Assembly (NCBI GenBank): GCA_049515535.1
Contig: JBEKTZ010000008.1
Location: 104,173 to 168,172 of the forward strand
Length of the DNA stretch: 64,000 nt
Source of the DNA: Candidatus Aminicenantales bacterium
GTDB taxonomy: Bacteria; Acidobacteriota; Aminicenantia; Aminicenantales; UBA4085
Direction of reading: 5' to 3'
Of the stretch, positions 2,440-59,669 are shown piece by piece. The notes beneath the pieces were generated by a model, which did not search any database, was not told where the DNA came from, and saw nothing but the letters and a program-made list of their open reading frames with translations. How positions within the stretch are numbered: position 1 is the stretch's first letter; the number at the start of each line of letters is the position of its first letter. A program made the position numbers and the translations under genes.

Positions 2440-3693
2440 ATGAAAAAGGAGCGGGTTTTATTGATTTTTTTCTTGTTGACGGCGACGCTGTCCATGTTTC
2501 CCGCTATCTCCTCCGCGCAGCTCGTTCTAGGCCAGTATGAGGGTGAAGCTCCGTTCCGGACCTGGAACACGTTTCCCTTTGCCGGCGCGGCCGCTCTCGG
2601 CCGGGGTGAAACTTGCTTTGCCCTGGCTTCAGACGCATCCTCGGCGCTGTCCAACCCGGCTCTCCTCCCCGGCCTTCCGAAATTCAGCCTGACGATCGGC
2701 GGCTATTATCAGGTCGCCGAATTCTACAAATACGGCCCGGTAAACACGGGAGTCATGGGAACGGAAAATAACATCGGGCAAGGGCTGTTTGGCCTGGATT
2801 CCGCCGGAGTGTCCTATTCCCTTGGCGGTTGGGCCTTCGCCCTGAACGTCTCTGTGACGGAGCTTTACAATCGGCCGGAAGCCAAATACGAAGAAACTTA
2901 CGGCGATGGCTCCGCCTATTTATTGGACTTCACCCAGGAGGGCATTCTCAGAAATATCAATTTTTCCATAGGGCGACGGATCTTTCCCTGGCTCAGCGCC
3001 GGCCTAGGGCTGAATTACGTGACCGGCAGCCTCCACAGGAAATTGTTGGAGCAGGAAACCCCGGTCGGCTATACGATCTCGGATCAGATTGGACAGGATT
3101 TCACGGGATTCTTCATTAACGGGGGCTTCCTGGTCGAGATTTCGGACAAATTCAAGGCCGCCGCGGTCTTCCGGACACCCTACGCGAAAAAGGCCGCGAA
3201 CAGCGGCGTCTTACGGTACAGCTACGCGACGTCGTCCGGTGCGCCGCCCGATATCGTCATATCGGCCTCATCGAATGATGTGGCCGAACAGCCGCCAATT
3301 CTCGGGTTTGGCTTGAGTTATGCGGTTCTTCCCGAGCTCGTCCTGACCGCGGACTCAACGTATTTCGCCTGGTCGAAATATAAGTTGGATGAGTTCGGAG
3401 AAAAGCAGGAGCGCGATTTCAAGGACATCGTCAAGCTTGGAGCGGGCGCGGAATATACGGCCCAGGCCGGGGTTTTCGGGGCTCAGGCCTCGATCCCGTT
3501 CAGAATCGGCCTCGTTTACGATCCGCAACCCATGAAAAACCCCGGTTCTTCTTATATCGCCTTCACTTTCGGAAACGGCGTGCATTGGAAAAACCTGCGC
3601 CTGGATCTGGGGGCCATGCTGGGCCGGGAATCGGGTTCCGGGAACAGCCTGGCCGTGAAAAGATTCGCACTTTCGCTCGGTTTTAACTTATAA
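2440..3693 (+). CDS. Putative outer-membrane beta-barrel protein (FadL/TodX-like size and organisation)
   Basis: Sec signal peptide MKKERVLLIFFLLTATLSMFPAISSAQ. Gly/Tyr/Phe-rich alternating hydrophobic strands throughout. No catalytic motifs. Family assignment is tentative. Confidence 0.5.
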   Translation: MKKERVLLIFFLLTATLSMFPAISSAQLVLGQYEGEAPFRTWNTFPFAGAAALGRGETCFALASDASSALSNPALLPGLPKFSLTIGGYYQVAEFYKYGPVNTGVMGTENNIGQGLFGLDSAGVSYSLGGWAFALNVSVTELYNRPEAKYEETYGDGSAYLLDFTQEGILRNINFSIGRRIFPWLSAGLGLNYVTGSLHRKLLEQETPVGYTISDQIGQDFTGFFINGGFLVEISDKFKAAAVFRTPYAKKAANSGVLRYSYATSSGAPPDIVISASSNDVAEQPPILGFGLSYAVLPELVLTADSTYFAWSKYKLDEFGEKQERDFKDIVKLGAGAEYTAQAGVFGAQASIPFRIGLVYDPQPMKNPGSSYIAFTFGNGVHWKNLRLDLGAMLGRESGSGNSLAVKRFALSLGFNL

Positions 3694-5535: not shown

Positions 5536-5572
5536 GCTTTACCTCATTTCCCATCCGTCATAGAATTTAAAG

Positions 5573-6124
5573 ATGCCCAAGCCCCCGATATTCGCTCATA
5601 TCTGCTGCGCCCCCGATGCGGCGTACGTCGTGGAACTCCTTCAAAAAGATTATGACGTCACGGGATATTTCTACAACCCGAACATCGGACCTCCGGCTGA
5701 GTACGCTCTCCGCCTGTCCGAGACGCGCAAGGTCGAACGCATTCTCGGCTTCGGGCTGGTGGAAGGCGACTATGAGCAGGATCTATGGTCGAGACTCACC
5801 CGCGGGTTCCGGGGCGAACCGGAAAAAGGACGGCGCTGCGATATCTGTTACGCCCTGCGGCTCGATCGAACGGCGCGGAAAGCGGTCGAATCCGGGTTTC
5901 CCGCATTCACGACCATCATGAGCGTTTCTCCCTGGAAGAAGGCGGAGGTCATCAATAGGATCGGACGCCTGATCGGGCGAAAACACGGCCTTCGCTTCCT
6001 TGAAGCTGATTTCAAAAAAAAAGGCGGATTCCAAAAGAGCGTCGAGCTCAGCCGCCTTTACGGGCTCTATAGGCAAAATTACTGCGGCTGCATTTGCAGC
6101 CGGCGGGACACGATCAATAAATGA
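5573..6124 (+). CDS. queH: Epoxyqueuosine reductase QueH (DUF208 family)
   Basis: N-terminal HICCAPDA Cys cluster plus a C-terminal CGC..C pattern. Length ~180 aa, characteristic of QueH. Confidence 0.7.
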   Translation: MPKPPIFAHICCAPDAAYVVELLQKDYDVTGYFYNPNIGPPAEYALRLSETRKVERILGFGLVEGDYEQDLWSRLTRGFRGEPEKGRRCDICYALRLDRTARKAVESGFPAFTTIMSVSPWKKAEVINRIGRLIGRKHGLRFLEADFKKKGGFQKSVELSRLYGLYRQNYCGCICSRRDTINK

Positions 6125-8400
6125 ACGGCTCAGCGCTCCGGATCACGGTCTTCGGCGTCGTCCAGGGCGTCGGATTCAGGCCCTTCATTTATCGCCTCGC
6201 CGGACGTTTCGGCTACAAAGGCTGGGTCAAAAATGCCGGCCGCGGGGTCGAGATCCACATCGAGACCGAAAGAAAAACCTCCTTTAAAAAATTTCTCGAG
6301 GCGATCACGGCCGAAAAACCTCCTCTGGCCCGGATCGAGAGCTTGACGTCTGAGCGCGCGGGCTTCAAAGGTCATCAGGATTTCACGGTCAAAAAGTCCG
6401 GCAAAGGGAAGCGTTTCGTATTTGTCTCTCCCGATATTTCGACCTGCGCGAACTGCCTCGAGGATATCGCGAACCCCGAGGACCGCCGGTTCCGCTATCC
6501 ATTCACGAACTGCACCGACTGCGGCCCCCGCTACACGATCGTGACGGAGCTGCCGTACGACCGTCCCTCCACGACGATGGCCGGCTTCCCGATGTGCCCG
6601 GACTGTTCCGCCGAGTACGACGATCCCCGCGACAGGCGCTATCACGCCCAGCCGATCGCCTGTCCGCGCTGCGGCCCGTCGGTCCGGCTTCGCGAGGCGA
6701 AAACGGGCCGGGAGATCCCGGGAGGAATCGAGCGGGCTGCCGCGCTCATCGGGCAAGGCAAAATCCTGGCGATCAAAGGGCTCGGCGGATTTCATCTCGT
6801 CTGCGACCCCCTGAATCTCAAGGCCGTCCGCCGGCTGCGTCGGATCAAGGAACGGCGCACAAAGCCTCTGGCCCTCATGGCCCGGGATCTGAGGACCATC
6901 GAGAAATACGCCCCGATCTCGCCCGAAGAGAGAAAATTCCTTCTCTCCGAAAGGCGTCCGATCGTCCTTCTGAAAAAGAAAAGGGACATTCCCGGGATTG
7001 CCCCGAATCTCGACGACATAGGGTTCATGCTTCCTTTTACGCCGTTGCATCATCTTTTGCTCGAGGATATCGAGCTTATCGTGGCGACTAGTTCGAACAT
7101 GAAAGATGCCCCGATCATGAAAGACGAGAACGAAGGCATCCGGAGCCTCTGCGATGCCATCCTCGGCCACGACCGGCCGATCGCGATGAGAGCGGACGAC
7201 TCCGTGCTCAAGATCGTGGACGCGGCGCCGCTTTTTATCCGCAGAGCGCGCGGCTATGTCCCTTATCCGCAGAAGGTTCCGGCGGAGCTCCGCTCCTCCC
7301 GATCCATCCTGGCCTTGGGAGGCGAGCTCAAAGACACGGTCTCCATATATAAAAACGGCTATATCGTCACGAGCCAGTTCCTGGGCGACCTGGATGAATA
7401 CAAAAACCGGATCTATTTCGAAGAGACGATCGCCCATTTGACGAAATTGTTCGACCTCAAGCCGGATTGTGTGGTCACGGACCTCCATCCCGGCTTTCAT
7501 TCGACCCGCCATGCCAAAAAGCTCGGACTTCCCCATCTTCAGGTCCAGCACCATCATGCGCATGTCCTGGCCGGCATGATCGAACATGGGATTTCTCCAG
7601 GAACCAGGGTTCTCGGCGTCGCCTGGGACGGCTTCGGCTACGGCGCCGACGGAACGGCTTGGGGCGGAGAATTTCTTCTGGCCGACTATCTAACCTTCGA
7701 GAGGTTCGCCCATTTCGAGCCCGTCCCTCTGCCCGGCAGAGACCTAGCGGCCAAGCAGCCGTGGCGGATGGCCTTAGCCTATCTCCGTGAAGCCGGGGTT
7801 GTCCGCGTTCCTCGGTTAGGAACTCTCAGAAGCATCAAGGAAAGAAAAATCCGGGGGGTGAAGGCCATGATGGACGGCCGGATCCATTCTCCATTGTCGT
7901 CGAGTTGCGGCCGGTTGTTCGATGCCGTTTCCGCCCTCCTCGGCACCGCCCCGATCGAGAACGAGTTCGAAGCCGAGGCGGCCATGCGGCTGGAAGCAAC
8001 AGCCTCGGGACGCGAGAAAAGGCCCTATCCTTTTCTTATAACTTGCGAAAAAAAGCCCTTTCTGATCTCCTTCGCGGAAACTGTCCGGAGCCTCTTGGCG
8101 GACCTTGAGCGAGGCTTATCGCCGTCCCGGATCTCCGGAAAATTCCACGCCACGCTGGCCCGCGTCATCGTCGAAGTCGCACTGAAGGCGAAGAAGGAAC
8201 ACGGGATCGAAATCGTCGTTCTCAGCGGAGGGGTCTTTCTGAATGCGAAACTGCTTCGGCTCGCCGCCGAAGGATTGAGACAAAGGGGATTGAGAGTTTT
8301 AAGACCCCTTGGTTATTCTCCGAACGATGAATCTCTATCCGTGGGACAGATCGCCCATGCCTTGGCCCGGATGGGAAACAAGCGGACCCTCAAGCGCTAG
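6121..8400 (+). CDS. hypF: [NiFe]-hydrogenase maturation carbamoyltransferase HypF
   Basis: Acylphosphatase domain (VQGVGFRPFIY). Two CxxC-x18-CxxC zinc fingers. YrdC-like and Kae1/YgjD-like domains. Start overlaps the queH stop (ATGA). Confidence 0.9.
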   Translation: MNGSALRITVFGVVQGVGFRPFIYRLAGRFGYKGWVKNAGRGVEIHIETERKTSFKKFLEAITAEKPPLARIESLTSERAGFKGHQDFTVKKSGKGKRFVFVSPDISTCANCLEDIANPEDRRFRYPFTNCTDCGPRYTIVTELPYDRPSTTMAGFPMCPDCSAEYDDPRDRRYHAQPIACPRCGPSVRLREAKTGREIPGGIERAAALIGQGKILAIKGLGGFHLVCDPLNLKAVRRLRRIKERRTKPLALMARDLRTIEKYAPISPEERKFLLSERRPIVLLKKKRDIPGIAPNLDDIGFMLPFTPLHHLLLEDIELIVATSSNMKDAPIMKDENEGIRSLCDAILGHDRPIAMRADDSVLKIVDAAPLFIRRARGYVPYPQKVPAELRSSRSILALGGELKDTVSIYKNGYIVTSQFLGDLDEYKNRIYFEETIAHLTKLFDLKPDCVVTDLHPGFHSTRHAKKLGLPHLQVQHHHAHVLAGMIEHGISPGTRVLGVAWDGFGYGADGTAWGGEFLLADYLTFERFAHFEPVPLPGRDLAAKQPWRMALAYLREAGVVRVPRLGTLRSIKERKIRGVKAMMDGRIHSPLSSSCGRLFDAVSALLGTAPIENEFEAEAAMRLEATASGREKRPYPFLITCEKKPFLISFAETVRSLLADLERGLSPSRISGKFHATLARVIVEVALKAKKEHGIEIVVLSGGVFLNAKLLRLAAEGLRQRGLRVLRPLGYSPNDESLSVGQIAHALARMGNKRTLKR

Positions 8401-9223
8401 CTTCAGGATCGTTCTCCCTGTCTTCGGATCCTTTGTTCCTCATTTCCTTTTCTTGCTCCGGGGCCGGAATCTGCAAATGGAGTTTGAGGCCTCCGATCAG
8501 GGAGAGAATGAAATTCAAGATCACGCCCTTGAGGAAAGCGAGGACGCCGAAAACCAGAAATCCGATCACCCCGCCCGACAACCCGTCTATGAGGGCGCCG
8601 AAGAGCTTGCCCTGGAGATTGGCGAGCGAGGCCGGCAGAAACGTCAGATATTTCGAAAAATATCCCGTGGCTCCGGCAAAAACCCCGGCGACGACTCCGA
8701 TGAGAACGCCCAGGACGCCGCCGAACAGGAACAAAGACGACAGCTGGACCGAGCGCAAGGCAAAGGTTCCTTTTTTTTGGCGGATATTGATGATTTGTCC
8801 TTGGCCGATGGTCCCTGTTTCCCTAAAGATTTCCTTTCCGAAGCCGGTCGTTCTGCAATTCGGGCAAGTCATCAAAGGTTTTTGGAGTTTGGCGCCGCAT
8901 TTGGGACAAGTGGACCGTTCCGAGCCGAAGTTCCCTCCGCAGCGGGCACAGACGGCCGACTCCAGCTTATTTTCGAATCCGCAATAGACGCAGATCGCTT
9001 TCTTCTCCTTCTGCGACGGCGGCTCGGCCTGGATCCAATCCTTTCCGTCGAAGAAATACCACTTGCCCGTCTGGGCCCCGATCATCCAGAAGTGACCTTG
9101 GTCGTCCTTGATCCGCAGCTTTTTCATCTCGTCGATGAACTGCTGGCGGGAAATTTCCCCGGTTTGGAACCTTGCCTTCAGGTTGTTGAAGGCTTCGATG
9201 ACGCCGATGAACGAGTTTTCCAT
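8390..9223 (-). CDS. Double zinc-ribbon domain membrane protein (hypothetical)
   Basis: Two CxxC...CxxC ribbons (CVYCG...CARCG and CPKCG...CPNCR). Gly-zipper-rich C-terminal TM region. ATG at 9223 with GAAGGAGAGGGG upstream. Confidence 0.55.
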   Translation of the reverse strand: MENSFIGVIEAFNNLKARFQTGEISRQQFIDEMKKLRIKDDQGHFWMIGAQTGKWYFFDGKDWIQAEPPSQKEKKAICVYCGFENKLESAVCARCGGNFGSERSTCPKCGAKLQKPLMTCPNCRTTGFGKEIFRETGTIGQGQIINIRQKKGTFALRSVQLSSLFLFGGVLGVLIGVVAGVFAGATGYFSKYLTFLPASLANLQGKLFGALIDGLSGGVIGFLVFGVLAFLKGVILNFILSLIGGLKLHLQIPAPEQEKEMRNKGSEDRENDPEASA

Positions 9224-31329: not shown

Positions 31330-32358
31330 TCAGCTCTGCCAGGAGCGCGGGAAGAAGATTTTCTCATACAAGGTCAGGGCGTAGCGATCGGTCATGCCGG
31401 CTATGAAATCTCCCACGCGTTTCTCAAGCGGATCTCCCTGCGGATATTCCTTGATATAGTCTTCGGGATGCTTGCTCAGATAATCATAGAGGTCGCGCAT
31501 GATCTTCTCGGTCTTGCGCAGCTCCTCGCGGGCGGAAGGGTTGTAATAGACGCGTTCGTACAGGAAATCCCGCAGCTCGACCACGGCCTTCATGATCTCG
31601 TCGCTCATGGCGATCCGATCGAGATTCGCTTTCGCGCTGGATTCCACGACGTCCACGACCATTTTGTCGATGCGCGTCGCATGCCAGCGGCCGAGGACCC
31701 CGACCAGGTGGCGCGGGATGTCGGTCTCCTTGATGATGCCGGCCCTCAGCGCGTCGTCGATATCGTGATTCACGTAGCCGATCACGTCCGAAACGCGCAC
31801 GATCTGGCCTTCGAGCGTCGCCGGCAGGTCCTCTTTTTTCCGGTCCAGGATCTTGCCGCGGCCTTTGGAGTGGCGGGAGATGCCGTCGCGGACCTCGAAG
31901 GTCAGGTTCAGGCCCTTCCCATCATACTCGAGCTTATCCACGACGCGGAGGCTCTGCTCATAGTGGCTGAACCCTCCGGGAAGGAGCTTGGCCAGCGTCT
32001 CTTCCCCCGAATGGCCGAAGGGCGTGTGACCGAGGTCGTGGCCGAGGGCGATGGCTTCGGTCAGGTCCTCGTTCAGCCGCAGGGCTTTGGCGATCGTCCG
32101 GGCGATCTGGGAGACTTCGAGGGTATGAGTGAGGCGCGTGCGGTAGTGGTCGCCGAAGGGCGCCAGGAAAACTTGCGTCTTATGCTTCAGGCGGCGGAAC
32201 GACTTGCAATGGAGGATGCGGTCCCGATCGCGCTGGAAAGCGGTCCGGAAGGCGTGGGGCGCTTCCTGCCGCACCCGACCTTTCGTGTCCCGGCTCAGGC
32301 AGGCCTTGGGCGAAAGGATCTGGGCTTCGATCTCCTCGAGCTGTTCCCGGATGTTCAA
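31330..32358 (-). CDS. dGTP triphosphohydrolase-like HD-domain phosphohydrolase
   Basis: HD motif ([10 protein letters not shown]) and a conserved N-terminal [10 protein letters not shown]...[11 protein letters not shown]. Apparent TTG start. Confidence 0.8.
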
Positions 32359-32474
32359 GATCTTGACCTCGACGGAAGTATCTTAACTTAAATGACGCGC
32401 CCGATAAAGCCCCCACGAGCAGAGAAACGAAGCGGAAACGATTCTCAGGTACCATTTGACGAGCGGCGATTATG

Positions 32475-32642
32475 CCCCGTGGCTTGCCACGGGGAGCCGC
32501 TCGAGAGGAATCCAAGGGGGAGTCGCCCCCTTGGTCGCAGGGCGGGGTTTCATGCCCCGCCCGAGAAGGGGAGGCAGGGCGCACCGTTTTGTACCTAGAG
32601 TACAAAACGGTGCGCCCGTTGGAAGGGGTCTTCCCCTCCAAG
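32475..32642 (+). repeat. Multi-hairpin conserved intergenic element, copy A (candidate structured ncRNA or mosaic REP element)
   Basis: Order of parts: H0 hairpin, CCAAGGGGG-N-CCCCCTTGG, TCGCAG, variable hairpin, CGAGAAGGGGAGGCAGGG, variable hairpin, CCGTTGGAAGGGGTCTTCCCCTCCAAG. The second copy at 58980-59129 has the same order, with different but base-pairing variable hairpins. Confidence 0.4.
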
Positions 32643-32671
32643 TTGACTTTTGGCCCTTTAGGCATTATTAT
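32643..32671 (+). promoter_or_regulatory. sigma70-like promoter (TTGACT, 17-nt spacer, TATTAT) immediately 3' of repeat copy A, driving the small ORF
   Basis: Hexamers are read directly. AAAGGAGGG RBS and the ATG at 32704 follow. Confidence 0.45.
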
Positions 32672-32703
32672 AGGCATTATTAATAGTCCATAAAGGAGGG
32701 ACC

Positions 32704-32997
32704 ATGAAAGACATCCCGAAAGCCCCGCCATCTAAGCTCTACCATTGGAAGAAGCTTATTGAGACACTCGAAAAAATCGATCCCATCGCCGCCGTTACGA
32801 GCATCACGATGGAGCCAATTTATCCGCCGACGGTCAGGGGCGGCAAGAAATATATTCACGCCGCGAGCGTCGAATTTAGCACGGGGATCCCGTTGTTCAA
32901 AGATTTTCCCAACATCAGGTATTCAGCTCGTTTGTGTCTTGAGCACCAAGACGAGTGCTGGTGGGACATCGTCGCCTGTCCCAATATCAAGATTTAA
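32704..32997 (+). CDS. Small hypothetical protein (97 aa) with a C-terminal Cys/Trp cluster
   Basis: Strong RBS (AAAGGAGGG) and an upstream promoter. Motif CLEHQDECWWDIVAC. No recognisable family. Confidence 0.45.
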   Translation: MKDIPKAPPSKLYHWKKLIETLEKIDPIAAVTSITMEPIYPPTVRGGKKYIHAASVEFSTGIPLFKDFPNIRYSARLCLEHQDECWWDIVACPNIKI

Positions 32998-58749: not shown

Positions 58750-58979
58750 CCCTCCATATGTGGATATTTCTCTCAACTTATATCGAATCGTCGCCAAGAA
58801 GTAAATCCCCCGCGCATTTTGGACAAAGCCGTCCTTAACCGTAGTACAGTTTCCAAGACGAGTTATATTTCCTATGTCACCAGAGCAAAGGATATGCTGC
58901 TCGGAACCCATCCGAGAGCGAGAGCGGGCATGGTTCGGAAATAAAATTTCCGAGAGCGAGAGAAAGGCCGAGCGGATTT

Positions 58980-59129
58980 GAGGATTTGGGCTCCGGCCCA
59001 AATCCTCGGGGACTCCAAGGGGGCATGCCCCCTTTGGTCGCAGTCCTATGCGGAGCATAGGGCGAGAAGGGGAGGCAGGGACGGCGGGATTTTCCCGCCG
59101 GACCGTTGGAAGGGGTCTTCCCCTCCAAG
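58980..59129 (+). repeat. Multi-hairpin conserved intergenic element, copy B
   Basis: H0 (GAGGATTTGGGC-tccg-GCCCAAATCCTC), then the same conserved linkers as copy A, with compensatory different stems. Preceded by two CCGAGAGCGAGAG direct repeats. Confidence 0.4.
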
Positions 59130-59188
59130 GGCGCGGGTGGGAAAATCCGCGTGGTGACGAGCGGCATATCCTGCGCGAGCCGTCCGGC

Positions 59189-59217
59189 TTGACAAAAACG
59201 CGAAAGACGGCTATTGA
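59189..59217 (+). promoter_or_regulatory. sigma70-like promoter (TTGACA, 17-nt spacer, TATTGA) downstream of repeat copy B, driving the lipoprotein gene
   Basis: Perfect -35 hexamer. Weaker -10. Confidence 0.4.
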
Positions 59218-59246
59218 ATGGAAGACTCGCCGAACAAGGACAAACC

Positions 59247-59669
59247 ATGAGAAAGGCCATCGCCGTATTGATGATTCTCGGCATCGCCGGAGTTTTATTG
59301 AGCGTGCCGGCCTGCAAAAGCAAATCCGGAGAGACGGCGGACGAAGCCGAACAAGCCCGCCTCGATTCGGAGCAGGCCGTGGCGGACGCGGCCGCGGCGG
59401 CGGAAGCCGCCAAACTGGCGGCCCCCCCTCCTCCTAAAATCAACGACGATGTCTACGCCGAGATCCGGGCGAGGTCATCCCTCTTGCTGGACAAATACAA
59501 GGACGACCCAGCCGCGGCTCAAAAGAATCTCGATGCCCTTTACGAAAAATTCCAGGTGACGATCGAGGAGTTCAAGGCCTTCGAAGCCAAACAGACGCCC
59601 CAGCACCGGGGGGAACTCGAACGGAAGGTCATGGACTTCATCCAAAAATTCGTCCACGAATACCGGTAA
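59247..59669 (+). CDS. Probable lipoprotein, Ala/Glu-rich, unknown function
   Basis: Signal peptide ending LSVPAC (lipobox-like). Low-complexity helical mature region. The first ATG is at 59247 (the track start is TTG). Confidence 0.5.
   Translation: MRKAIAVLMILGIAGVLLSVPACKSKSGETADEAEQARLDSEQAVADAAAAAEAAKLAAPPPPKINDDVYAEIRARSSLLLDKYKDDPAAAQKNLDALYEKFQVTIEEFKAFEAKQTPQHRGELERKVMDFIQKFVHEYR

Follow-up and report, generated by a model that had tools for sequence, protein, structure and literature searches.

A previously undescribed family of interspersed multi-hairpin repeats in Candidatus Aminicenantes

Results

Two copies of a modular element

Two segments of the 64,000-nt stretch of DNA analysed here (the window) belong to a family of non-coding, interspersed repeats of Candidatus Aminicenantes that has not been described before. 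These repeats are modular, with multiple hairpins, and one strand (+) is kept foldable by selection. Most likely, they are small mobile parasites and not gene switches.

The segments had been reported as look-alikes in an earlier note made from the sequence alone (32475-32642 and 58980-59129), and both were verified there, on the + strand, with the module order H0, H1, TCGCAG, H2, linker, H3 and H4 correct in each. They share an 18-nt block, CGAGAAGGGGAGGCAGGG (32562-32579 and 59063-59080), and a 27-nt block, CCGTTGGAAGGGGTCTTCCCCTCCAAG (32616-32642 and 59103-59129), each occurring exactly twice in the 64 kb, with chance expectations of 0.17 and 0.00, respectively. Between these exact blocks, the hairpins of the two copies have unrelated sequences. 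Both copies folded far better than shuffled sequences (z = -8.0 for copy 1 and -5.0 for copy 2), and no third copy was found in the window by a covariance model run with filters off. The boundaries first given were too narrow: the element extends further and has more modules than had been described. Copy 1 spans 32456-32647, from TTGAC through TTGAC (short form, about 190 nt), its H0 having an additional outer stem (32460-32467/32496-32503). Copy 2 covers at least 58889-59172 (long form, about 290 nt), including a 5' module, a hairpin H5 and a 15-bp long-range closing helix (58889-58903/59158-59172) that had not been described. The features are listed below, with their basis in brackets.

Copy 1
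32456..32460, + strand: 5' TTGAC junction motif, within TTGACGAGCGGC, conserved at short-form 5' edges; homologous to TGACGAGCGGC of copy 2 (59155-59165)
32460..32503, + strand: H0 outer stem CGAGCGGC/GCCGCTCG (sequence, fold, family comparison); equivalent of the long-form closing helix, here capped (family comparison)
32474-32494, + strand: H0 inner hairpin CCCCGTGG-CTTG-CCACGGGG, enclosed by the outer stem
32512..32534, + strand: H1, CCAAGGGGG-AGTCG-CCCCCTTGG (sequence, fold)
32535..32540, + strand: invariant junction TCGCAG; GGTCGCAG invariant or nearly so in 70 copies
32541..32561, + strand: H2, GGCGGGG-TTTCATG-CCCCGCC, variable hairpin (sequence, fold)
32562..32579, + strand: purine-rich junction CGAGAAGGGGAGGCAGGG, exact in both window copies
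32580..32614, + strand: H3, long 15-bp hairpin, variable module (sequence, fold)
32616..32642, + strand: CCG, H4 (TTGGAAGGGG-TCTT-CCCCTCCAA, bulged A) and G, exact in both copies
32643..32671, + strand: 3' terminal TTGAC (32643-32647) and promoter-like TTGACT-17-TATTAT, upstream of ORF 32704-32997

Copy 2
58889..58903, + strand: P1 closing helix, 5' strand AGGATATGCTGCTCG, pairing with 59158-59172 (MFE and centroid folds)
58904..58979, + strand: 5' module with GAGCGGGCATGG and hairpin 58934-58954 (sequence, fold)
58912-58924 and 58950-58962, + strand: direct repeat CCGAGAGCGAGAG in the 5' module
58980..59007, + strand: H0, GAGGATTTGGGC-TCCG-GCCCAAATCCTC (sequence, fold)
59015..59043, + strand: H1, CCAAGGGGGC-AT-GCCCCCTTTGG, with one bulged T, and TCGCAG (sequence, fold)
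59044..59062, + strand: H2, CCTATGC-GGA-GCATAGG (sequence, fold)
59063..59080, + strand: junction CGAGAAGGGGAGGCAGGG, exact match to copy 1
59081..59102, + strand: H3, CGGCGGGA-TTT-TCCCGCCG (sequence, fold)
59103..59129, + strand: CCG, H4 and G, exact match to copy 1
59131..59152, + strand: H5, CGCGGG-TGGGAAAA-TCCGCG, missing from copy 1 (fold)
59155..59172, + strand: TGAC junction and P1 3' strand CGAGCGGCATATCCT, motif shared with copy 1 at its 5' end

A protein-coding origin was rejected, as the lengths of the H2, H3 and H4 modules differ by non-multiples of three and the reading frame past the shared linker differs between copies 1 and 2. The Rfam comparison that the earlier note had proposed gave 0 matches in the whole window at gathering thresholds (Rfam 15, membership being a covariance-model score at or above the gathering threshold of the family). 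A further search at permissive thresholds gave best scores of 13-20 bits around both copies, compared to thresholds of 40-111 (E of at least 0.12), and an HDV-like resemblance of GGGCAUGGUUCC found no Rfam support.

Distribution, architecture and permutation of the family

Species-representative genomes were scanned with the 17-mer GAGAAGGGGAGGCAGGG, and at least about 80 copies with the full architecture were directly observed, dispersed over at least 37 assemblies. Among the matches listed, almost all element-positive assemblies were Candidatus Aminicenantes and up to at least nine copies appeared per MAG. Plasmid and phage collections had no match by blastn, viral contigs scanned with the 17-mer presented a single chance match inside a gene, and no Aminicenantes/OP8 RNA motifs or repeats were found in the literature.

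The unit measured 190-400 nt across the family and comprised 5-8 hairpins and conserved unpaired junctions. The junction strands GGGGrUUCC, UCGCAG, CGAGAAGGGGAGGCAGGG, CCG and UGACGA made up an invariant core, and the helices leaving it (H0/P1, H1, H2, H3 and H4) varied freely in sequence and length, the H3 position being occupied in other copies by hairpins of other sequence, 10-36 nt long. H5 and the outer helices were optional. Among the long-form copies, H5 was kept as G.TGTGGGAAA...GCG, the GAGCGGGCATGG module was conserved in 14, and P1-equivalent helices of different sequence appeared in others.

Copy 1 is a circular permutation of the long form, with the closing helix capped and the backbone opened at the UGAC junction, which results in TTGAC at both ends. 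In particular, copy 1 begins with TTGACGAGCGGCGATTATGCC, which matches TGACGAGCGGCATATCC, located 3' of H4/H5 in copy 2, and natural H4-AAATTGAC-GAGCGGC junctions at two loci (L060 and L095) are identical to the ends of copy 1 joined together. The permuted forms preserve the cyclic helix order.

Copies were homogeneous within genomes, with a median pairwise identity of 92% and several pairs at 99-100% at unrelated loci, compared to 70% between genomes; gene conversion could be an alternative source of this homogeneity. Truncated, tandem and solo-H4 copies were found, and about 20 copies among the matches listed lay at contig ends. Moreover, presence differed among relatives: the nearest ones, whose HD gene is 91-92% identical, had no copy across 21 kb, and related metagenome loci (830 kb) had only two copies, both around yggS in L124. 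Two genomes with otherwise unalignable intergenic DNA had a copy upstream of accB in common, a retention that suggests purifying selection at that locus.

Compensatory changes and the folded strand

Compensatory change maintaining the hairpins had been proposed from two copies and was borne out by 70 distinct ones, in which 99.0% of the cells were paired and pairing collapsed when the stem partners were slid. Double-change cells numbered 74, compared to 16.8 in shuffles, with 0 of 500 shuffles reaching the observed value. Pairing persisted despite unrelated sequences in H0, H2, H3 and the closing helices. In particular, five of the nine pairs of H1 had double changes, one pair of H2 appeared as GC (41), AU (24) or CG (3), and the TYGG/CCRA stem of H4 covaried between UA (57) and CG (12). 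A pseudoknot of the loop-junction type, joining the H1 loop to UUGAC and considered by eye, was discarded for being without covariation.

This conservation of structure was strand-specific. On the + strand, G.U exceeded A.C by 53:4, which indicates that this strand is under selection to fold, and its MFE was lower than that of the other strand in 64 of the 66 copies compared for stability. The loop repertoire of the 66 copies comprised 60 C(GNA)G triloops, 87 GCGNAGC and 17 CTTG, with almost no GNRA or UNCG hairpin caps. Such cap types are atypical of RNA and typical of stable DNA mini-hairpins, very stable forms of which are known at ssDNA priming sites and in phage N4 hairpin promoters (PMC13037366). 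A DNA intermediate is favoured by the loop repertoire, and an RNA intermediate by the tolerance of G.U.

Genomic setting and the promoter question

Both window copies lie between divergent genes, as had been noted. Copy 1 is flanked by an HD-domain phosphohydrolase on one side and a 97-aa ORF (ORF97) and yggS on the other, and copy 2 by a TAT-signal GFO/IDH/MocA-GH109 protein and a small lipoprotein. Intergenic regions with the element and confident flanks (38) were divergent in 18 cases, tandem in 18 and convergent in two, and 36 of the 38 copies were in regions containing gene starts. The divergent share (18/38) exceeded the 13% background against all intergenic regions (p = 3e-7), while with only intergenic regions of at least 80 nt as background the enrichment was marginal (p = 0.05), being largely lost, and promoter-region targeting was rejected. 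In tandem regions, the element was antisense to the next gene in 16 cases and sense in 10. The downstream genes were functionally unrelated (guaA, leuS, ileS, accB, mnmE, mraZ, sulfatases and lipoproteins).

The TTGAC that had been read as a promoter directly 3' of each copy is instead an internal conserved junction of the element; in copy 2, the closing helix has its 3' strand after this junction. Its readings as a target-site duplication or a pre-existing -35 box hit by the element were also rejected, TGACGA being an internal junction of the long form. Only part of the sigma70-like promoter claim held: TTGACT-17-TATTAT at copy 1 matches the consensus at 10 of 12 positions, but TTGACA-17-TATTGA at copy 2 fails the sigma-70 rule because it has no T at the last -10 position. 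The terminal TTGAC was kept in short-form copies even without any -10 behind it. A properly spaced -10 followed it in three of 15 short-form copies, above the 3.5% expected by chance, but the family as a whole does not share this spacing. In copy 1, the terminal TTGAC probably acts as the -35 box for ORF 32704. As for the small exported proteins said to be driven from these sites, only the one downstream of copy 2 looks exported, with a lipoprotein-like N-terminus; ORF97 has no signal peptide and no Pfam match, and is absent from relatives. Exact-protein look-ups for a strain-level empty site found no record for ORF97 or the lipoprotein, and one extra contig stopped before the element.

No conserved -35/-10 was found upstream of the family copies and no terminator-like site at copies 1 and 2; a terminator role was rejected, as there is no T-run and most copies sit where no gene ends. 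Therefore, a classical sRNA gene, lacking a conserved promoter or terminator, was not supported, and neither was a cis-regulatory or riboswitch-like role, as the downstream genes were unrelated and the orientation mixed.

Discussion

A non-autonomous mobile repeat and its alternatives

Of the three options first considered for the element, a structured mobile REP/MITE-like one fits best. We consider it about an even chance that the family is a mobile, non-autonomous repeat, similar to REP/BIME elements or MITEs, that depends on its single-stranded fold to propagate. The family would multiply within genomes as REP/BIME, PATE or MITE-type repeats do, the folded single strand being the form recognised by a copying machinery supplied in trans. 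Such recognition would explain why pairing is kept and junctions are invariant while the stems drift, and a circular or tandem single-stranded intermediate would account for the permutation. We infer mobility itself, the nature of the intermediate and any effect on neighbours. In favour of the mobile reading are the unrelated flanking genes, the higher identity of copies within genomes than between them, the missing copy in the nearest relatives, the truncated, tandem and solo-H4 copies, and the copies at contig ends. No protein recurred beside the copies when their neighbours were clustered all-against-all. Among the flanking proteins of the matches listed, there was no transposase, RAYT, TnpB or reverse transcriptase, and a tblastn search with an IS608 TnpA-like query (Y1 transposase) had no match in 1.75 Mb. 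Moreover, neither target-site duplications nor conserved flanks were found at long-form boundaries. Replication-strand bias was rejected: GC skew in the flanks, used as a proxy and taken relative to the strand of the element, was positive at 35 loci and negative at 39 (p = 0.76), and the coding-strand fraction was 0.48. This speaks against ssDNA transposition on the lagging strand as in IS200/IS605. A conserved core with variable termini is also the reverse of classical MITEs and counts against the mobile reading; together with invariant junctions across at least 37 species, this pattern is more reminiscent of an RNA with a functional fold. The copy retained upstream of accB and the possible origin of within-genome homogeneity by gene conversion count against the mobile reading as well.

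Placed second, as possible though doubtful, are host-functional structured RNAs, in which the + strand would be transcribed and many loci would need copies, acting as a protein-binding scaffold, a module for transcript processing or stability, or a catalytic RNA. Invariant junctions with free helices, compensatory changes and tolerated G.U are consistent with them, as are closing helices that differ in sequence without relation from one subfamily to another, a circular permutation that keeps the cyclic helix order, the accB-upstream copy retained in two divergent genomes and the 36 of 38 copies in gene-start regions. Natural circular permutation is also known in hammerhead and twister ribozymes. 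Nevertheless, a conserved promoter and terminator are both missing, the copies take both orientations to neighbours of unrelated functions, close relatives have no copy, paralogues resemble each other much more closely than they do copies from other genomes, and the hairpin caps are of the DNA type, with almost no GNRA/UNCG.

A DNA-level element acting as folded chromosomal ssDNA, for instance through supercoil-driven hairpin extrusion between promoters, as a hairpin-type promoter or as a primase/primosome loading signal, seems unlikely. It would agree with a loop repertoire like that of very stable DNA mini-hairpins, comparable hairpins at ssDNA priming sites and N4 promoters (PMC13037366), and the divergent enrichment of 18/38 vs. 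13%. However, that enrichment mostly vanishes against regions of at least 80 nt, there is no orientation bias by GC skew or gene strand, presence among relatives is patchy, and a cruciform needs both strands paired, yet A.C (G.T opposite) is avoided.

A new catalytic or self-processing class is improbable. Here, a multi-helix-junction RNA (or ssDNA) would be cut or joined at UUGAC|GA, and tandem or rolling-circle precursors would release monomers that are then circularised, which would explain the fixed TTGAC ends, the H4-AAATTGAC-GAGCGGC junctions and the permuted genomic forms. If true, it would represent in bacteria what retrozyme- or viroid-like replicons are elsewhere, or else a new family of self-cleaving ribozymes. 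Most improbable, and largely refuted by the family survey, is the first lead of a cis-regulatory module or sRNA with a sigma-70 promoter driving small exported proteins, which could draw on the promoter-like site abutting copy 1, the small ORFs downstream of both window copies and the spaced -10 of three of 15 copies, against which stand the failed copy 2 site, the other 12 short-form copies, the internal nature of TTGAC, the diverse, housekeeping downstream genes with many copies antisense, and an ORF97 neither exported nor present in relatives.

Comparison with known systems

REP/BIME elements and REPINs are mobilised by RAYT Y1 transposases. REPs are single palindromes of 20-40 bp with a GTAG or CGTC tag, found mainly 3' of genes, where the ORFs on either side converge or stand in tandem; their single-stranded hairpins are thought to be recognised, and arrays have been proposed to arise from circular intermediates (PMC3733652). 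The present family resembles REP/BIME/REPIN in being interspersed, intergenic and non-coding, with G+C-rich hairpins in larger mosaic units that are varied between species and homogeneous within a genome. In contrast to REPs, it measures 190-400 nt, has invariant unpaired junctions, hypervariable stems and no GTAG tag (GACG...CGTC occurs only at some H0 stems), and is found mostly in gene-start regions; no RAYT was seen beside the copies listed.

Bacterial MITEs have conserved terminal inverted repeats and target-site duplications with a variable interior. The Correia/CREE, ERIC, BOX and RUP repeats are non-autonomous, 100-400 nt long, structured as single strands and modular (BOX A-B-C); MITE-type repeats sometimes carry outward promoter elements, and their copy number varies among relatives. 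The family shares their size class, single-strand structure, modularity and varying copy number. Unlike MITEs, it has variable termini, invariant interior junctions, strand-asymmetric pairing and no TSD: long-form ends are complementary, with sequences differing among subfamilies, the short form of copy 1 is without TIR, and the TTGAC at both short-form ends is element sequence.

IS200/IS605-derived PATEs have no classical TIR or TSD and carry subterminal hairpins read on one DNA strand; their specific left-flank penta-nucleotide resembles the right-end cleavage site, and they can form circular single-stranded intermediates. The TTGAC|...TTGAC| arrangement of copy 1 is similar, although the left TTGAC is not simply a target because it is homologous to the internal long-form junction. 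Moreover, the family differs in having no orientation bias by the replication proxy, and no TnpA or TnpB was seen beside the copies listed.

Hammerhead (types I-III) and twister (P1/P3/P5) ribozymes present conserved multi-helix junctions, free stems, permuted forms and numerous copies in intergenic regions, frequently associated with selfish elements. The family shares the multi-helix junction with conserved nucleotides, the free stems, the permutation and the many intergenic copies, but it is larger, has no Rfam ribozyme match and contains none of the ribozyme core consensus sequences. HEARO/omega-RNAs, large ncRNAs of IS elements, are also of 200-400 nt, heavily structured and present in tens of copies per genome; they lie next to IscB/TnpB ORFs, while no such neighbour was found for any of the about 80 copies listed and Rfam HEARO gave no match.

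The family joins traits that are usually separate: it behaves in populations like a selfish interspersed repeat, yet it is built like a functional fold, with its invariant junctions, compensatory stems and circular permutation. Should the folded strand be DNA, the family would be a new class of substrate for enzymes that transpose or recombine single-strand DNA; should it be RNA, the family would be a new structured RNA of large size that may process itself. In both cases, it would give a concrete and testable handle on the mobile-element biology of Aminicenantes, a lineage without genetics whose members are uncultured, abundant in sediments and the subsurface, and known from MAGs only. Candidatus Aminicenantes is a class-level lineage of Acidobacteriota. 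In at least 37 of its species, the repeat is a hitherto unannotated feature, whose copies break short-read assemblies, generate spurious ORFs and can donate a -35 box to adjoining genes.

Two copies in the window

Both segments that an earlier note had described as copies of a five-hairpin intergenic element were confirmed where it had placed them, on the + strand. The features in the window were the following:

32456-32647 (+): copy 1, short form, ~190 nt
58889-59172 (+): copy 2, long form, ~290 nt
58889-58903 and 59158-59172: pairing strands of the closing helix of copy 2, AGGATATGCTGCTCG and CGAGCGGCATATCCT
58912-58924 and 58950-58962: direct repeat CCGAGAGCGAGAG, within the copy 2 5′ module
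58934-58954: small A/T-rich hairpin flanked by these repeats
32704-32997 (+): ORF97 (97 aa), with a strong Shine-Dalgarno sequence, directly behind copy 1
32180-32731 (-) and 59048-59437 (+): examples of spurious ORF calls across the element, which is long enough to yield them

The sequences CGAGAAGGGGAGGCAGGG (at 32562 and 59063) and CCGTTGGAAGGGGTCTTCCCCTCCAAG (at 32616 and 59103) each occurred exactly twice in 64 kb, with chance expectations of 0.17 and 0, respectively. In the pairwise alignment of the copies, conserved junctions alternated with unrelated, self-complementary inserts, and their folds had z-scores of -8.0 (copy 1) and -5.0 (copy 2) relative to shuffles. Neither a third copy (covariance model, filters off) nor tRNAs were found in the window and, in agreement with that note, no known Rfam family matched in the window or around the copies at gathering or permissive thresholds. 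Copy 1 was flanked by an HD/HD_assoc phosphohydrolase gene (the HD gene) on one side, and by ORF97, which had no Pfam hit and no record in the protein collection, and then yggS on the other, while the neighbours of copy 2 were a TAT-signal GFO_IDH_MocA/GH109 gene and, on its other side, a lipoprotein-like ORF.

Family and structure

Scanning species-representative genomes for the 17-mer GAGAAGGGGAGGCAGGG yielded at least 119 loci, with the whole architecture at no fewer than ~80 of them, the remaining matches being chance or other repeats. The host assemblies (at least 37, some of them MAGs with generic labels) were nearly all labelled Candidatus Aminicenantes/Aminicenantales/Saccharicenans or Acidobacteriota, with up to 9 copies per MAG among the matches listed. 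With hairpins numbered in order, the consensus was H0 - GGGGrTTCC - H1 (CCAAGGGGG/CCCCCTTGG) - TCGCAG - H2 - (C)GAGAAGGGGAGGCAGGG - H3 - CCG - H4 (TYGGAAGGGG..CCCCTCCRA). This element family is real, strongly supported and not annotated before.

Among 70 distinct copies, standard pairs filled 99.0% of the consensus-helix cells, and both-side changes affected 8 pairs and 74 cells, compared to 16.8 cells in shuffles, none of which (0/500) reached 74. Sliding the partners by 1-3 columns lowered pairing to 50-70%, and H0, distal H2, H3 and distal H4 still paired despite entirely different sequences and lengths. The compensatory pairing proposed from two copies was therefore upheld; corrections are needed to the boundaries, promoter link and regulatory reading proposed with it. 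Of 66 copies, 64 gave a better fold on the + strand than on the - strand (mean difference 10.8 kcal/mol) and G.U cells exceeded A.C cells (53 vs. 4), which indicates that the + strand is selected as a folded single strand. Length differences among the modules were not multiples of three; the element is thus non-coding, and a protein-coding reading was rejected.

For RNA as the folded strand spoke the 13-fold tolerance of G.U over A.C, the invariant junctions with free helices, a tandem G.A in the closing helix and an orientation not linked to replication. For single-stranded DNA spoke 103 triloops among 341 predicted hairpin loops, 60 of them C(GNA)G, together with GCGNAGC (87 times in 66 copies), CTTG caps (17 times) and the near absence of GNRA (about 11) and UNCG caps. 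DNA hairpins of the type GCGNAGC/GCGNNAGC have exceptional stability, their RNA counterparts far less; the type is found at sites of ssDNA priming and at hairpin promoters (PMC13037366).

Long form and circular permutation

The boundaries first proposed were too narrow, as copy 2 extends over ~290 nt. It carries a conserved 5′ module upstream (..GAGCGGGCATGG..) and, 3′ of H4, an extra hairpin (H5), then TGAC and the strand pairing with the far 5′ end. Other long-form subfamilies had the same closing helix (P1) with different sequences (AGGCGAGGGTATTGGG/CCCAATACCGAGCCT; ..GGTGTTGGG/CCCAACACC..; AAGGGGAGAGGGCAAGGGAT/ATCCCTTGCCCTTCCCCTT; GGGTGGGTCC..GCGGCGC/GCGCCGCGCCACCCACCC), and one had an additional outer helix, CTCTTTTTCCG/CGGAAAAAGAG, whose variants were compensatory. 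The long form contains four to five GAGCGG-like motifs.

The 5′ end of copy 1, TTGACGAGCGGCGATTATGCC (from 32456), equals the motif after H4/H5 in copy 2 (TGACGAGCGGCATATCC, 59155-59172); most long-form copies conserve this junction of UGACGA and a following helix strand. In copy 1 the partner of this strand is local, GCCGCTCG (32496-32503), with a capping hairpin between the two, and the 3′ end reads H4-AAGTTGAC. Thus, the short form is P1 3′-strand - cap - P1 5′-strand - H1 - H2 - H3 - H4 - TTGAC, a circular permutation in which the cyclic order of the helices is kept and the backbone is opened at the UGAC junction. Contiguous H4-AAATTGAC-GAGCGGC junctions, identical to the joined ends of copy 1, occurred naturally in the genome-collection loci L060, L070 and L095, where a solo H4 or partial copy directly precedes a full copy, so the flanking TTGAC is element sequence. 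The invariant junctions and the permutation are unusual among structured interspersed repeats and make the element worth experimental follow-up. At L030:~6000-6500 (-), the element lay within a locus-specific 22-nt inverted repeat (AAGCATTTCCAAAACCGTGATA / TATCACGGTTTTGAAAATGCTT), which may be a pre-existing palindrome hit by insertion or a further outer helix.

Of the promoters proposed 3′ of each copy, the one of copy 1 (TTGACT-17-TATTAT) passed the consensus scan and the one of copy 2 (TTGACA-17-TATTGA) failed it. A terminal TTGAC with a rule-conforming -10 box was found in 3 of 15 short-form copies (expected 3.5%), with two further near-misses by eye, L057 and L060 (TATAAC and TATTAG), both lacking the final T. 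A -35 box can come from the element, as is probable for the ORF at 32704, but as a by-product and not as the defining property of the family.

Dispersal and genomic context

Core identity, including the variable stems, had a median of 92% within genomes and 70% between genomes, and several same-genome pairs at unrelated loci were 99-100% identical (e.g. L035/L046/L062 and L048/L053). Among 80 related metagenome loci around HD gene orthologues (830 kb in total), only L124, whose HD gene is 87% identical, held copies: two, at 7626-7777 (+) and 8442-8603 (-), convergent and bracketing yggS, vs. the single copy upstream of ORF97-yggS in the window. In L122 and L123, which are the closest relatives (protein identity 91-92%), 21 kb contained no copy, and their HD-yggS spacer held neither element nor ORF97; hence, ORF97 may have arrived with the element or be a spurious ORF. 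An accB-upstream copy was common to two genomes, the rest of whose intergenic DNA no longer aligned. Deleted, tandem and nested copies also exist, including:

L070:~5570-5640 (-): deletion derivative directly upstream of a full copy, 5′ half of H0 joined to 3′ half of H3 via shared CCGGGTCTT
L106:~3000-3200 (+): tandem second copy
L037:~5740-5765 (+): full copy, with the opening ~22 nt of a further unit behind it

About a quarter of the genome-collection copies among the matches listed adjoined contig ends (≤ ~300 nt in L006, L016, L018, L019, L027, L039, L042, L044, L053, L056, L069, L080, L086, L091, L096, L103, L112 and L113), so the repeat fragments short-read MAG assemblies.

Gene calls came from an ORF caller based on codon usage and trained on the loci themselves. 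Those beside copies were functionally unrelated (guaA, leuS, ileS, accB, mnmE, mraZ, sulfatases, lipoproteins and others), and no protein family recurred among the compared neighbours. Element-bearing intergenic regions with confident flanks were divergent, tandem or convergent in 18, 18 and 2 cases, compared to 38, 209 and 51 for all other intergenic regions (P = 3e-7), or 32, 56 and 20 when the background was limited to those of at least 80 nt (P = 0.05). Tandem regions had 10 elements sense and 16 antisense to the following gene.

Interpretation

The combined evidence is best fitted, at roughly even odds, by an amplifying, non-autonomous interspersed repeat, given that it is dispersed to unrelated loci, is homogeneous within genomes, is present in some relatives and absent from others, has decayed and tandem copies and follows no regulon logic. 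A copying machinery acting in trans would use its single-stranded fold as substrate, and a circular or tandem intermediate, processed directly after UGAC, would give the permuted short form. No partner enzyme was seen among neighbouring proteins or by tblastn with an approximate Y1 transposase query (1.75 Mb). In behaviour the element resembles REP/BIME, PATE and MITE-type repeats, but it departs from the definition and distribution of REPs in PMC3733652, shows no TSD, unlike MITE-type repeats, and lacks the replication bias of PATEs, as its orientation followed neither flank GC skew nor coding strand. The ends of the long form are complementary, in sequences that differ between subfamilies, and copy 1 has no TIR.

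The main rival, a host-functional structured RNA, is possible at a tentative level; the RNA-like features of the fold are consistent with it, and the unrelated neighbours offer it no regulon. A DNA-level structural role, to which the DNA-type triloops could belong, is improbable beside the G.U tolerance, and the extreme RNA version, a self-processing ribozyme or circular replicon-derived element compatible with the permutation, slightly more so. Least probable is the promoter-linked regulatory module of the earlier note, as neighbours are unrelated and orientation is mixed, whatever the -35 box of copy 1.

A few copies of the element came from assemblies labelled as other phyla: L083:2756-2906 (-) 'uncultured Clostridiales RUG089' (divergent, 24.8 bits), L116 'Thermoplasmata archaeon', L101 'Clostridiales' and L021 'Desulfaltia', which could be mis-binning, mislabelling or rare transfer. 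Four loci in one Syntrophaceae UBA6087 MAG (L022:7419, L075:2068, L082:896 and L097:1899) read TTCGGAG-GAGAAGGGGAGGCAGGG-GGCCT.., often with the reverse complement CCCTGCCTCCCCTT after it; they represent another hairpin repeat, which shares the 17-mer by coincidence.
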